The notes below the pieces were generated by a model. It searched no databases and had not been told where the DNA came from. It worked only from the letters and a program-made list of their open reading frames with translations. From a virus (taxonomy: Duplodnaviria; Heunggongvirae; Uroviricota; Caudoviricetes): a DNA stretch of 21,088 bases. The stretch is from IMG/VR virus record IMGVR_UViG_2541047945_000001. One strand, 5' to 3'. A program made the position numbers and the translations under genes. Positions 3,789 through 13,303 of the stretch are shown here, one piece after another (the first letter of the stretch is position 1; every line of letters starts with the position of its first letter).

Positions 3789-3811
3789 AAGAGGGGGTTA
3801 TTAAGGCGTGA
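3677..3811 (+). pseudogene. 3' remnant of a DLP12 ybcO-like gene (frame 2), ending in an overlap with the rusA start
   Basis: Frame-2 translation …[29 protein letters not shown] resembles the YbcO C-terminus as I recall it; in-frame TAG at 3674-3676 closes it upstream; stop 3809-3811. Confidence 0.45.
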
Positions 3812-4170
3812 ATACCTACAGCATCACATTACCCTGGCCTCCGAGCAATAATCGCTATTACCGCCATAATCGCGGGCGCACGCACGTCAGCGCAGAGGGG
3901 CAGGCATACCGCGATAACGTCGCCCGAATCATTAAAAACGCAATGCTGGATATCGGCCTGGCTATGCCTGTGAAAATCCGCATTGAGTGCCACATGCCGG
4001 ATCGCCGTCGCCGTGACCTGGATAATCTGCAAAAAGCCGCTTTTGACGCACTCACTAAAGCAGGTTTCTGGCTGGATGATGCTCAGGTCGTTGATTACCG
4101 CGTTGTGAAGATGCCTGTTACCAAAGGTGGGAGGCTGGAACTGACCATCACCGAAATGGGGAATGAATGA
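3808..4170 (+). CDS. rusA: RusA Holliday-junction resolvase
   Basis: 120-aa [49 protein letters not shown]… essentially identical to E. coli DLP12 RusA; GTG start. Confidence 0.95.
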
Positions 4171-4964: not shown

Positions 4965-6047
4965 TTAGAACTGATAAACCAGACCTACAGCGACGATGTC
5001 GTCGGTATCAATACCAGCTGTTTTGGTAAACTTACTATCGTCAATTAAGTTGATTTTGTAATCAACAAAAGTAGACATGTTTTTATTAAAGTAGTAAGTA
5101 GCACCGACATCGACATACTTGACTAAGTCTCGGTCACCATGAACACCAAGGTCTTTACCTTTTGACTGAAGGTAAGCAACAGATGGGCGCAGACCGAAGT
5201 CAAACTGATATTGTGCTACTGCTTCAAAGTTTTGTGCTTTGTTTGCAATATGGTTATTACCAAAAACGGTCATATTCTGAGTTTCAGAATATGTGGTAGC
5301 CAGATAGATATTGTTCGCATCATATTTCAGGCCTGCAGCCCATACTTCCGCATTTTTGCCGGAGGCATTGAATTTGCTCTTACCATAGGCGACCTGACCG
5401 TCAGTGCGATCTGATTTAGCATAGGTTGCACCCACGCCGAATCCTTCATACTCATAAGTAGTGGAGAAACCGAAACCATCACCATTGGCTTCAGTTACGT
5501 CAGTGCGGTCATTTTTACCCTGATACTGAGCAGCAAAGTTCAGGCCATCGACCAGACCAAAGAAGTCGTTGTTACGATAAGTTGCAACACCAGTAGTGCG
5601 ACCAGTCATGAACACATCTGTTTGGGTCCAGGTATCACCACCGAATTCTGGCAGAACGTCAGTCCACGCACCGATGTCGTATGCTACACCGTAGTTACGG
5701 CCGTAATCGATGGAGCCGTAATCACCAAATTTCAGGCCTGCAAATGCAAGACGGGTTTTGTCTTTGGAAGAACCTTGAGATTCAGCACGGTTGCCTTTGA
5801 ATTCATATTCCCACTGACCGAAACCAGTCAGTTGATCGTTGATTTGGGTTTCACCTTTGAAGCCAAGACGGGCATAAGTAGTATCACCATCATCTGCATC
5901 ATTAGAGGAGAAGTAGTGCTTGGCATTAACTTTCCCGTATAGATCCAGCTTGTTACTGTCTTTATTATAAATTTCAGCTGCCTGAGCAGACATCGCCATC
6001 AGTACTGATGCAGCTACAGCAGAAATTGCCACTGTTAATTTTTTCAT
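4965..6047 (-). CDS. nmpC: Outer-membrane general porin, NmpC/Lc (OmpC/OmpF family), intact with signal peptide
   Basis: Minus-strand ORF; [23 protein letters not shown] signal peptide then [16 protein letters not shown]… and C-terminal …VAVGLVYQF with terminal Phe. Start set at the MKK ATG, not the 20-codon upstream extension of the ORF track. Confidence 0.92.
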
Positions 6048-6473
6048 TGTACGCCCTTTTTTTGAACTATTATTAAAAAATGATGTCACTGCGCGATAAA
6101 TATTCATCTAATCAATGTGATTATTTCAAGATGTAAGTTTTAGTTTCTCATTTAATTTGTGAAGTAGATCTCTATTTTTATCTGAACCTTTTCTATCTAA
6201 TCCTATTCATGGCTCTTGTCTGAACAAAAATAAATCTATTAGCTAATTTATATTAATGGCACTTATTTATAAGTGCTCTATAATTCTTTAGCTTAATTTA
6301 AACAAACTAAAAATAACATCGGAAATTATTAACTGATTATTTGTTGAAGTTTTCTTATGTATTTGTGGTGGTGTTTTGAACACTCGGTGGCATTCTCACA
6401 AATATCATTTAGTAGTTTACGTACGTAAAAAATTGGTTATGCTGTTAAGAGTGGTTACTTCGTCACACAGCTT

Positions 6474-6635: not shown

Positions 6636-6851
6636 ATGAAATCCATGGATAAGTTAACAACGGGTGTCGCCTATGGCACCTCAGCAGGTAGTGCCGGTTA
6701 CTGGTTTTTACAGCTGCTCGATAAAGTCACGCCCTCACAGTGGGCAGCAATAGGTGTGCTGGGTAGCCTGGTATTTGGCCTGCTGACGTACCTGACAAAC
6801 CTTTATTTCAAGATTAAAGAAGATAAGCGCAAGGCTGCGAGAGGTGAATAA
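6636..6851 (+). CDS. essD: Holin, phage-21 S21 pinholin class
   Basis: 71-aa [74 protein letters not shown], close to S21 / DLP12 EssD. Confidence 0.92.
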
Positions 6852-7348
6852 TGCCTCCATCATTACGAAAAGCCGTTGCTGCTGCTATTGGTGGCGGAGC
6901 AATTGCTATAGCATCAGTGTTAATCACTGGCCCAAGTGGTAACGATGGTCTGGAAGGTGTCAGCTACATACCATACAAAGATATTGTTGGTGTATGGACT
7001 GTATGTCACGGGCATACAGGAAAAGACATCATGCTCGGTAAAACGTATACCAAAGCAGAATGCAAAGCCCTCCTGAATAAAGACCTTGCCACGGTCGCCA
7101 GACAAATTAACCCGTACATCAAAGTCGATATACCGGAAACAATGCGCGGCGCTCTTTACTCATTCGTTTACAACGTGGGTGCTGGCAATTTCAGAACATC
7201 GACGCTTCTTCGCAAAATAAACCAGGGCGATATCAAAGGCGCATGTGATCAGCTACGTCGCTGGACATATGCTGGCGGTAAGCAATGGAAAGGTCTCATG
7301 ACTCGTCGTGAGATTGAGCGTGAAATCTGTTTGTGGGGTCAGCAATGA
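6851..7348 (+). CDS. rrrD: SAR (signal-anchor-release) endolysin, lysozyme family, R21-like
   Basis: 165-aa ORF with Gly/Ala-rich N-terminal SAR domain ([20 protein letters not shown]) then a lysozyme domain; start overlaps the holin stop. Confidence 0.9.
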
Positions 7349-7837: not shown

Positions 7838-8131
7838 TTATTGTGAGCAATACACACGCGCTTCCAGCGGAGTATAAATGCCTAAAGTAATAAAACCGAG
7901 AAATCCATTTACGAATGTTTGCTGGGTTTCTGTTTTAACAACATTTTCTGCGCCGCCACAAATTTTGGCTGCATCAACAGTTTTCTCCTGTCCAATTCCC
8001 GAAACGAAGAAATGATGGGTGATGGTTTCCTTTGGTGTTACTGCTGTCGGTTTGTTTCCAACAGTAAACGTCTGTTGAGCACATCCTGTAATAAGCATTG
8101 CCAGAGCGGCAGAAAACAACATTTTTTTCAT
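7838..8131 (-). CDS. bor: Bor outer-membrane lipoprotein (serum-resistance moron)
   Basis: MKKMLFSAALAMLITGCAQQTFTVGNKPTAVTPKETITHHFFVSGIGQEKTVDAAKICGGAENVVKTETQQTFVNG…ARVYCSQ (97 aa) matches lambda Bor; AGGA RBS before ATG 8131; ORF track 8179 is an upstream extension. Confidence 0.92.
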   Translation of the reverse strand: MKKMLFSAALAMLITGCAQQTFTVGNKPTAVTPKETITHHFFVSGIGQEKTVDAAKICGGAENVVKTETQQTFVNGFLGFITLGIYTPLEARVYCSQ

Positions 8132-8247
8132 CTTATTATCCTGCATTGTTAAAAACGGCAGAATCCTATGTGACAACAATTAAACGATAGTTAAATGGAT
8201 TGATGAAAATTAAAACTATATAGGTGGATGCTCAGCCTATTGGAGGA

Positions 8248-8256
8248 GGGGGGGGG
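8248..8256. repeat. Homopolymeric G9 tract in a non-coding region
   Basis: GGAGGAGGGGGGGGGCAC read directly. Confidence 0.9.
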
Positions 8257-8493
8257 CACTCAGAATCCTGTGGAATGAAATAAACCGCTCTATCTGTCCA
8301 TTACCCTTTTAGCTGCGCTGTATCGTCGCCGTATTCCCGCATTAACCATGACCGTAGCCCGACGGGGAATTCCTTCTGCGTGAGTGTGCGGGAATAATCA
8401 AAAACGATGCACACCGGGTTTTACTGTGCTGACAGACGCAGGGTTACCCTCATAGTCGCTTTTCCGGTGCGATGGTGGAAGAAACCGGGATGT

Positions 8494-8688
8494 TCATCCA
8501 TCATCACTTTGGATTGATGTATATGCTCTCTTTTCTGACGTTAGTCTCCGACGGCAGGCTTCAATGACCCAGGCTGAGAAATTCCCAGACCCTTTTTGCT
8601 CAAGAGCGATGTTAATTTGTTCAATCATTTGGTTAGGAAAGCGGATGTTGCGGGTTGTTGTTCTGCGGGTTCTGTTCTTCGTTGACAT
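8494..8688 (-). CDS. ylcI: Small YlcI-like protein (DUF3950 from memory), predicted ribbon-helix-helix DNA-binding fold; function unknown
   Basis: 64-aa minus-strand ORF MSTKNRTRRTTTRNIRFPNQMIEQINIALEQKGSGNFSAWVIEACRRRLTSEKRAY… with a strand / helix / G-x-S-G turn / helix pattern; sits where ylcI lies in DLP12. Confidence 0.55.
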   Translation of the reverse strand: MSTKNRTRRTTTRNIRFPNQMIEQINIALEQKGSGNFSAWVIEACRRRLTSEKRAYTSIQSDDG

Positions 8689-8839
8689 GAGGTTGCCCCG
8701 TATTCAGTGTCGCTGATTTGTATTGTCTGAAGTTGTTTTTACGTTAAGTTGATGCAGATCAATTAATATGATACCTGCGTCATAATTGATTATTTGACGT
8801 GGTTTGATGGCGTAGATGCACGTTGTGACATGCAGATGA

Positions 8840-9060
8840 TAATTATTATCATTTTGCGGGTCCTTTCCGGCGATCCGACAGGTTACGGGGCGGCGACCTC
8901 GCGGGTTTTCGCTATTTATGAAAATTTTCCGGTTTAAGGCGTTTCCGTTCTTCTTCGTCATAACTTAATGTTTTTATTTAAAATACCCTCTGAAAAGAAA
9001 GGAAACGACAGGTGCTGAAAGCGAGCTTTTTGGCCTCTGTCGTTTCCTTTCTCTGTTTTT
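8840..9060 (+). other. cos: cos site (cosQ-cosN-cosB): cosN 12-nt cohesive end GGGCGGCGACCT at 8888-8899; cosB with gpNu1 R elements and an AT-rich IHF-like region
   Basis: …GATCCGACAGGTTACG|GGGCGGCGACCTCGCGGGTTTTCGCTATTTATGAAAATTTTCCGG… is the lambda right-end/left-end junction; R3 CGTTTCCGTTC ~8941, inverted R2 GAAAGGAAACGACAG ~8997-9011 and R1 CTGTCGTTTCCTTTC ~9038-9052. Confidence 0.93.
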
Positions 9061-9076
9061 GTCCGTGGAATGAACA

Positions 9077-9596
9077 ATGGAAGTCAACAAAAAGCAGCTG
9101 GCTGACATTTTCGGTGCGAGTATCCGTACCATTCAGAACTGGCAGGAACAGGGAATGCCCGTTCTGCGAGGCGGTGGCAAGGGTAATGAGGTGCTTTATG
9201 ACTCTGCCGCCGTCATAAAATGGTATGCCGAAAGGGATGCTGAAATTGAGAACGAAAAGCTGCGCCGGGAAGTTGAAGAACTGCGGCAGGCCAGCGAGAC
9301 AGATCTCCAGCCAGGGACTATTGAGTACGAACGCCACCGACTTACGCGTGCACAGGCCGACGCACAGGAGCTGAAAAATGCCAGAGACTCCGCTGAAGTG
9401 GTGGAAACCGCATTCTGTACTTTCGTGCTGTCGCGGATCGCAGGTGAAATTGCCAGTATTCTCGACGGGATCCCCCTGTCGGTGCAGCGGCGTTTTCCGG
9501 AACTGGAAAACCGACATGTTGATTTCCTGAAACGGGATATCATCAAAGCCATGAACAAAGCAGCCGCGCTGGATGAACTGATACCGGGGTTGCTGA

Positions 9597-9622
<26 letters not shown>
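9077..9622 (+). CDS. Nu1: Terminase small subunit gpNu1
   Basis: 181-aa ORF MEVNKKQLADIFGASIRTIQNWQEQGMPVLRGGGKGNEVLYD… essentially identical to lambda Nu1. Confidence 0.97.

Positions 9623-13303
<3,681 letters not shown>

Follow-up and report, generated by a model that had tools for sequence, protein, structure and literature searches.

The stretch of DNA analysed here, 21,088 nucleotides long and called the window in what follows, is the late region of a lambdoid prophage. Reading from left to right, we find RusA (3808-4170), lysozyme (6851-7348) and then Rz/Rz1, bor on the minus strand (7838..8131; Pfam Lambda_Bor, E 4e-30), and a small minus-strand open reading frame of 64 amino acids plus stop with an ATG start (8494..8688), for which bor is the next gene on its own strand. 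Past this ORF lies cosN, the lambda cohesive-end sequence GGGCGGCGACCT, as an exact single match on the plus strand (8888-8899) at 199 bp from the ATG, followed on the plus strand by nu1 for the small terminase subunit (9077..9622; Pfam Phage_Nu1, E 4e-101), head-to-head with the ORF, and the large terminase gene A (9597..11522). The ORF list gives the same coordinates and length as an earlier, sequence-only reading of this DNA, and the placement about 200 bp from cosN and opposed to the terminase genes that it described holds as well. A complete porin gene of Gram-negative type (4965-6107, minus strand; Pfam Porin_1, E 2e-151) sits between the RusA/antiterminator region and the lysis genes and is another antisense accessory gene of the prophage. 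We also observe nine consecutive G at 8248-8256, which read as C on the strand of bor and precede its start codon by about 117 nt; the same homopolymer near bor counts six G in phage 434 and nine in 2G7b, and such a length-variable run could affect bor expression, or could reflect sequencing error.

We found that the ORF, whose 64-aa product is MSTKNRTRRTTTRNIRFPNQMIEQINIALEQKGSGNFSAWVIEACRRRLTSEKRAYTSIQSDDG, is a CDS of the ylcI/ynfO family (DUF3950). The Pfam model DUF3950 (PF13132) matches residues 21-49 with 72.8 bits (cut-off 25, E 2e-20), NCBIfam NF041551 (YlcI_YnfO_N) scores 37.6 bits, above its cut-off of 30, and PHROG 949, which carries the label of function unknown, matches at E 2e-35; the I-R-F strand, the N-F-S motif and the phage synteny of the family are present too. 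Using 8140-9100, the region that contains the ORF, as a megablast query, we obtained matches in 5035 of the 5426 complete E. coli genomes, including chromosomes with 100% identical DNA on which RefSeq labels the gene 'ylcI: YlcI/YnfO family protein' beside 'nohD', so that the likeness to the YlcI of DLP12 suspected earlier is borne out by family models and annotation alike. The ORF is annotated in phage 434 as 'hypothetical protein, DUF3950' and in phage 2G7b as 'YlcI/YnfO family protein', and phage lambda has a copy at about 48116-48304 on the minus strand with 96.8% identity (tblastn), over which several lambda-derived records annotate no feature. Upstream of the ATG, by 7 nt, the window reads a weak Shine-Dalgarno-like GGGG (8696..8699, minus strand), at the place where the 434 record marks a ribosome-binding site, and relatives of the ORF have the stronger GAGGAAA or AAGGAAA. 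A full-text literature search on YlcI, YnfO and DUF3950 returned incidental mentions and no functional study, and the family descriptions retrieved for DUF3950, NF041551 and PHROG 949 assign no function. The ORF is a real, conserved gene of the YlcI/YnfO (DUF3950) family, and its existence is not news because it is already annotated.

Upon examining six diverged phage copies in all six frames, we observe that only the ORF frame combines freedom from stops with a low pN/pS (0.126), third codon positions in this frame taking 283 of the 375 pairwise differences, which speaks for conservation of the ORF as opposed to the DNA. The wobble-matched antisense frame has pN/pS 0.29 with stops in three of the six copies, and the four other frames have pN/pS >1 plus stops. 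This overwhelmingly synonymous pattern contradicts the possibility that the ORF is not a functional protein, with its conservation reflecting a DNA or RNA element or a plus-strand shadow. That possibility could draw on the weak Shine-Dalgarno sequence, on the failure to find a promoter in the window and on a weak plus-strand terminator-like hairpin with a T-rich tail inside the ORF (TTGCGGGTTGTTGTTCTGCGG, 8648-8668, plus strand), but an Rfam search gave nothing relevant, and family members in Enterobacterales and Pasteurellaceae still keep a conserved motif at identities down to 34%; we consider the possibility very improbable. Judged by its substitutions, ylcI is protein-coding and under purifying selection. 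After this analysis the ORF need no longer be suspected of being a chance frame or a part of cos.

The same gene occurs in front of a different packaging module, and we aligned the lambda-type ylcI copies with those copies (phage 2851, Lys8385 and others). Between the lambda-type and the HNH-type genes, DNA homology runs from the ATG to about codon 52, with unrelated flanks. Within codons 1-52, 25 synonymous and 8 non-synonymous changes (omega ~0.04) separate the window from the Lys8385-type copy; for phage 2851 the counts are 18 synonymous and 10 non-synonymous (omega ~0.10). Downstream of this mosaic junction lies a variable C-terminal tail (codons 53-64 plus stop, 8494..8532, minus strand); E. 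coli proteins carry at least eight alternative tails after the common YlcI core, from about residue 52 onward, and the point at which the tails switch coincides with the recombination junction.

To approach the fold of the protein, we aligned it with 22 genuine homologues (33-81% identity), leaving out many database 'homologues' because they are error-ridden copies of lambda DNA. Residues I15, R16, F37 and V41 are invariant among the 23 sequences, and F17, I25, S38, W40, A44 and C45 are nearly so. Structure prediction covered single chains, and the AlphaFold2 monomer (mean pLDDT 71) is extended at residues 12-18, helical at 19-32, a loop at 33-36 and helical again at 37-60; DSSP assigns no strand in it because the partner chain is absent. 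On the minus strand of the window these elements correspond to a predicted basic N-arm and DNA-reading beta-strand T-T-T-R-N-I-R-F-P (codons 10-18, 8635..8661; from conservation, AlphaFold and the alignment with Arc), helix 1 (codons 19-32, 8593..8634; block pLDDT ~78-83), an inter-helix turn G-S-G-N, a loop in the AlphaFold model, leading into the N-F-S motif of the family (codons 33-36, 8581..8592), and AlphaFold helix 2 (codons 37-60, 8509..8580), the conserved part of which reaches to about codon 49 (FSAWVIEACRRRL). This strand-helix-turn-helix topology is compatible with the ribbon-helix-helix (RHH) fold whose pattern the sequence-only reading had recognised in the protein.

Comparisons with known structures and profiles point the same way. 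Foldseek against the PDB gave no match at E below 0.3 for the ORF model, and its list (all E >=0.3) is dominated by RHH proteins, namely StnY/CopG, NikR, Arc, MazE9, CopG, ParD2 and HicB. A HicB-like PHROG is matched by nine of the 23 family members (best E 8e-5), one Arc-like PHROG by three (best E 7e-4) and a second by two (best E 0.032). Using hhalign, YlcI N14-I-R16-F-P18 aligns with Arc N11-L-R13-W-P15 at E 0.012 for this single comparison. Neither the protein by itself nor the family profile gave a significant match among PDB sequences, and in a second profile search of a large protein database the best 120 matches were close relatives, without a connection to named RHH families. None of these scores decides the matter alone; when combined, the weak signals make the RHH assignment likely, and we hold it with considerable confidence.

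In all loci examined, phage ylcI is the last gene before the packaging module and lies on the strand opposite to late transcription. Its neighbours are of the lambda type, cos-Nu1-A, in the window, in 434, in 2G7b and in Qin-like loci. In phage 2851 and the HNH-type prophages the module is the unrelated HNH-Terminase_2-TerL; here the ylcI ATG is 41 bp from the HNH ATG and the HNH gene stands between the ylcI-family gene and terS, and by analogy with HK97 the cos of these phages would presumably be past the HNH gene. Downstream of the ylcI-family gene, Qin/ev099-type phages have ydfO (DUF1398) on the same strand, and the phage 2851 copy is flanked by a promoter-like site and a strong same-strand terminator. 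In K-12, ybcW-ylcI is among the convergent overlapping transcript pairs detected in at least half of the RNA-seq samples (PMC12288877). Of the marks of a moron, a prophage accessory gene with a promoter and terminator of its own that runs against the neighbouring operon, the ORF has the opposed orientation, and the minus strand of the window is without a promoter-like site or terminator. Membership of the cos/terminase machinery is not what the locus indicates, the ORF being 199 bp outside cosN, on the opposite strand and with homology borders independent of the packaging module. The position of ylcI is compatible with a role in packaging, and equally with a standard insertion point for accessory genes, because bor and ydfO occupy the same region.

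A packaging role, one of the possibilities raised from the letters, would have YlcI binding DNA beside cos or working with the small terminase, and thereby modulating cos recognition, termination or the start of packaging. The head-to-head arrangement with the first packaging gene in two unrelated modules, lambda cos-Nu1-A and HNH-Terminase_2-TerL, speaks for such a role, but several properties of the locus argue against it: ylcI is antisense to the late transcript that expresses terminase, it moves independently of cos, since homology stops at the ORF borders, and in HNH-type phages it is separated from terS by the HNH gene. Additionally, lambda packaging needs no more of cos than a fragment of about 200 bp.

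The neighbourhood bears equally on the suggestion that YlcI is an orphan RHH antitoxin, in which the N-terminal RHH would repress a promoter and the variable tail would neutralise a toxin encoded elsewhere. Between the ORF stop and bor we find ORFs of at most 37 aa, that one without a Pfam match, in line with the earlier remark that no toxin ORF is adjacent; nor does a toxin-like ORF adjoin the gene in HNH-type phages or in the satellites described below, so that the adjacent, co-transcribed toxin of type II antitoxins of the RHH class is seen beside neither ylcI nor its homologues. The downstream gene on the same strand, where there is one, is DUF1398 (YdfO/YbcV), which to our knowledge is not a toxin family. 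The tail variation needs no toxin partner as its explanation because it coincides with the recombination junction. We regard the antitoxin reading as quite unlikely.

Scans for regulatory sites around the phage copy were largely negative. Scanning the window for promoters and terminators gave no match on the minus strand. Lambda-type and HNH-type upstream regions share no palindromic pattern or motif, a further point against a packaging role, and repeated 12-mers upstream of lambda-type, HNH-type and chromosomal copies do not rise above shuffled controls. Two candidates were rejected, the TTGY-N6-TTGY 'CII sites' of the 434 record, which are a plus-strand reading with too low an estimated information content, and a weak 15/22 match between the two phage types upstream of the ATG, which partly overlaps the start of the HNH CDS on the other strand (HNH ATG at L094 2459) and was not accepted as a conserved promoter. 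Some structured stretches were seen along the way. The terminator-like hairpin inside the ORF lies in the codons of the R-T-R-R-T-T-T-R arm and is oriented with late transcription. At 8836-8852, 36-52 bp left of cosN, we find a perfect 17-bp palindrome, ATGATAATTATTATCAT, which closely precedes the place given for cosQ in the 434 record, and an inverted repeat, ATCAATTA-N17-TAATTGAT, spans 8758-8790, 70-102 bp upstream of the ORF start; neither is common to HNH-type phages.

Many distant relatives of the gene lie in another kind of element. A scan of one genome per species yielded about 40 genuine distant DUF3950 homologues in Enterobacterales and one in Pasteurellaceae, and about half of the roughly 40 are inside small integrative elements. 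These elements are P4-like satellites, with an integrase, an AlpA-like gene, sometimes an AntA-like or capsid gene, and then a lone DUF3950 gene on the opposite strand, divergent from which run an Icd-like gene, small ORFs, a 'derepression protein' and a primase. At every one of 24 satellite loci (among L004 5241..7876, L003, L052-L089 and L110) we find two to four copies of a 12-bp pseudo-palindrome at fixed offsets within the 150 bp upstream of the DUF3950 start, which is the divergent promoter region of the satellite. The main type, present at 22 loci, is GTG-N6-CAC at about -100, -76 and -30, and a second subfamily has the site TGGTAnnTACCA at -45 and -12. At the 22 loci with the main type, exact GTG-N6-CAC occurs 16 times per kb inside the upstream stretches and 0.22 times per kb in the remaining 209 kb, a 72-fold enrichment.

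The inner six bases of the sites are alike within an element and vary between elements, and their sequence goes with the residues that immediately precede the invariant I-R-F. Proteins with S-T-T-K-G pair with sites GTGCACA(A/T)ACAC, those with x-Y-K-G with GTGTTTAAACAC, and those with K-K-x with sites that start GTGTG (GTGTGCGCAC or variants). For instance, residues 15-56 of the L081 and L067 proteins show 90% identity, but the two proteins have LY and TT, respectively, and different sites, and L081 and the more distant L066 have the same residues 11-12 (LY) and the same sites. Two strand residues (11-12) are thus predicted to set the specificity of the satellite proteins, and a change of TT to LY would switch GTGCACATACAC to GTGTTTAAACAC. 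Such co-variation is what marks a repressor that reads its operators with the strand; from it we infer that the DUF3950 family binds DNA through the RHH strand, and the satellite copies look like autoregulated repressors.

About 110-150 nt upstream of the DUF3950 ATG, the satellite loci (for example L052 4852-4890) also have a conserved GC-rich hairpin, GCCCGG...CCGGGC in some and GCCTCG...CGAGGC in others. It belongs to the leader of the Icd-like/primase operon, whose start codon follows about 35 nt later, and recalls the RNA-based immunity leaders of P4 and P1. Long minus-strand ORFs of 200-430 aa over the satellite DUF3950 genes (L009, Pasteurella phage Pmp7, 4435..5109 minus; L057 4625..5572; L066 4598..5887; others) were rejected as apparent shadow ORFs joined to a real Icd-like gene of about 65 aa, being conserved only over their C-terminal ~60 residues and having no Pfam match. 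The 'transcriptional repressor' annotated in Pmp7 seems to be such a shadow, covering an unannotated DUF3950 gene plus the Icd-like gene.

The satellite loci raise the possibility of a phage-satellite conflict, in which YlcI would act in trans on satellite promoters, either silencing the satellite or being sensed by it. That many of the distant homologues sit at the divergent promoter of the satellite Icd-like/derepression-protein/primase operon, with operator arrays that co-vary with strand residues, fits such a conflict, as does the T11-T12 that YlcI has in common with the S-T-T-K-G satellite group, and at one E. coli locus a satellite is inserted inside a prophage with its own ylcI. However, neither GTG-N6-CAC nor GTGCACAWACAC-like sites were found near phage ylcI, and the window and the helper prophages examined contain no satellite-type operator; S-T-T-K-G-type satellites are rare in E. 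coli (3 of 5426 genomes), and YlcI is only 34-47% identical to the satellite proteins. We consider this conflict a rather unlikely role for the phage copy. The phage gene is without operator arrays, and therefore its target is not obvious and is probably elsewhere.

Two satellite proteins, P0193 (L003 4714..5103) and P0252 (L004 6001..6363), have DUF3950 fused to the N-terminal, DNA-binding part of Terminase_2. The fusion covers the first ~50 residues of that domain (profile positions 1-53 of 141), and the rest of the small terminase is absent; the P0252 segment is about 60% identical, by a by-eye count, to the N-terminus of the TerS of the neighbouring prophage, and the L004 fusion gene has GTGTTTAACAC-like repeats of its own upstream. 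These fusions are possible packaging-interference factors, and they also lend something to the packaging reading of YlcI. Against that reading stands the occurrence of the DUF3950 family in chromosomal, non-phage contexts, and with the evidence from the phage loci we hold a packaging role to be unlikely. As a separate observation, the E. coli satellite of L004 seems to have inserted within the large-terminase gene of a prophage (8040..8881), where a 93-aa ORF resembling an N-terminal terL fragment abuts the satellite integrase. Set against the phage 2851 TerS, the terS of this prophage is broken into two ORFs, an N-terminal one of 61 aa and a C-terminal one. A wider and speculative scheme, which we think improbable as a whole, would make DUF3950/YlcI the operator-binding switch of a large group of P4-like satellites in Enterobacterales and Pasteurellaceae, with specificity from two RHH-strand residues; the copies of lambdoid, helper-type phages, including that of lambda, would then be trans-acting weapons or sensors, and the RHH-TerS fusions DNA-bound decoys that interfere with helper packaging.

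Chromosomal homologues are found downstream of cdtABC and in a fimbrial/restriction-modification region. In Pantoea (L098/L099 7001..7225) a TonB-dependent receptor gene ends 10 bp before the DUF3950 gene and CopC follows it, in Rouxiella (L090 6001..6180) it follows the cytochrome bd genes, and both loci carry a DUF2946 gene, which suggests a host-domesticated branch of the family tied to metal or respiratory operons.

Some entries in the databases are artefacts. The 'DUF3950-DUF1398 fusion' proteins P0260, P0258 and P0259 were rejected, as they arise when the TGA stop of ynfO is read as Trp; entries of the P0260 type have 233 aa and hundreds of member sequences, and the DNA (L096 430-490) has ynfO and ydfO as separate genes about 50 nt apart on the same strand. 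Furthermore, copies of the lambda region with 93-100% identity occur in assemblies of Kitasatospora, Cohnella, Flavobacterium, Enterococcus, a spider and others (L010-L039, L045, L046, L049, L058, and many ~3.5-kb ENA contigs behind P0001-P0120), and many of the copies carry frameshift-like errors. Their presence in unrelated taxa looks like contamination of sequencing runs by lambda control DNA, and these copies inflate the apparent diversity of the DUF3950 family in protein databases.

Judging from sequence and model, ylcI most likely encodes a small RHH DNA-binding regulator. We put at roughly 60% the reading that YlcI is a dimeric, Arc/Mnt-like RHH regulator with its own transcript against the late operon, acting in trans; our confidence is higher for the gene and the fold and lower for the role. 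We infer the dimerisation, the DNA binding, the regulatory role and the time of expression. The N-terminal strands of two YlcI chains (T-R-N-I-R-F-P, about residues 12-18) would come together as an antiparallel ribbon that enters the major groove of the DNA, the Arg/Thr-rich arm (residues 4-13) touching the backbone and helices 19-32 and 37-~50 forming the core of the dimer. The gene would be transcribed on its own, against the late operon and head-to-head with the packaging genes, as an accessory gene active in the prophage and outside the late programme, and its product would be a sequence-specific transcription regulator of a site away from its own gene. The interpretation of the ORF given in the sequence-only reading is supported.

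The finding about YlcI is itself ordinary; what deserves follow-up is the co-variation with operators across the family, together with the RHH-TerS fusions. For DUF3950, a domain without an assigned function that most sequenced E. coli genomes and phage lambda carry, the analysis provides a predicted fold and a testable mode of action, and the satellite homologues offer an experimental handle, defined 12-bp sites and two predicted specificity residues, with which to find the binding target of the phage protein. If the phage copy does act on satellites or on packaging, it would be a new component of one of the best-studied phage regions.

Comparing the ORF with known systems, we observe that YlcI (DLP12) and YnfO (Qin) of E. 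coli K-12 are of the same family and are the same gene in RefSeq annotation, with the same position after the lysis genes, antisense and beside nohD/nohA, the nu1 homologues. The window copy departs from them in nothing essential; it has the lambda/434-type tail (…TSEKRAYTSIQSDDG), and the Qin/ev099 type has instead a 77-aa tail and then ydfO (DUF1398). The satellite DUF3950 proteins have a homologous core with the same I-R-F ... N-F-S-x-W-V motifs, and their gene, like phage ylcI, is a lone gene on the opposite strand; the satellite copies differ in lying beside two to four palindromic sites in a divergent promoter region, where the phage copy has none, and in being fused in some cases to a TerS N-terminal domain. 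The CopG/RHH_1-type regulators and the RHH antitoxins (HicB C-terminal domain, ParD, TacA, VapB) have the same predicted fold as YlcI, and proteins of the CopG/HicB/ParD type are its best structural and profile cross-matches, at scores below significance; YlcI differs from them in having no toxin partner and no plasmid copy-control context. Finally, when set beside Arc and Mnt of P22, YlcI shows no significant pairwise sequence similarity, its C-terminal tail is longer, and unlike theirs its gene has no antirepressor operon visibly under its control and no operator found next to it. YlcI is nevertheless small like Arc and Mnt, with two helices, a G-x-S-type turn and the strand motif N-x-R-x-P (N-I-R-F-P in YlcI, N-L-R-W-P in Arc), and Arc and Mnt come from the immI region of P22, inside the late region of a lambdoid phage, as the ylcI gene does.
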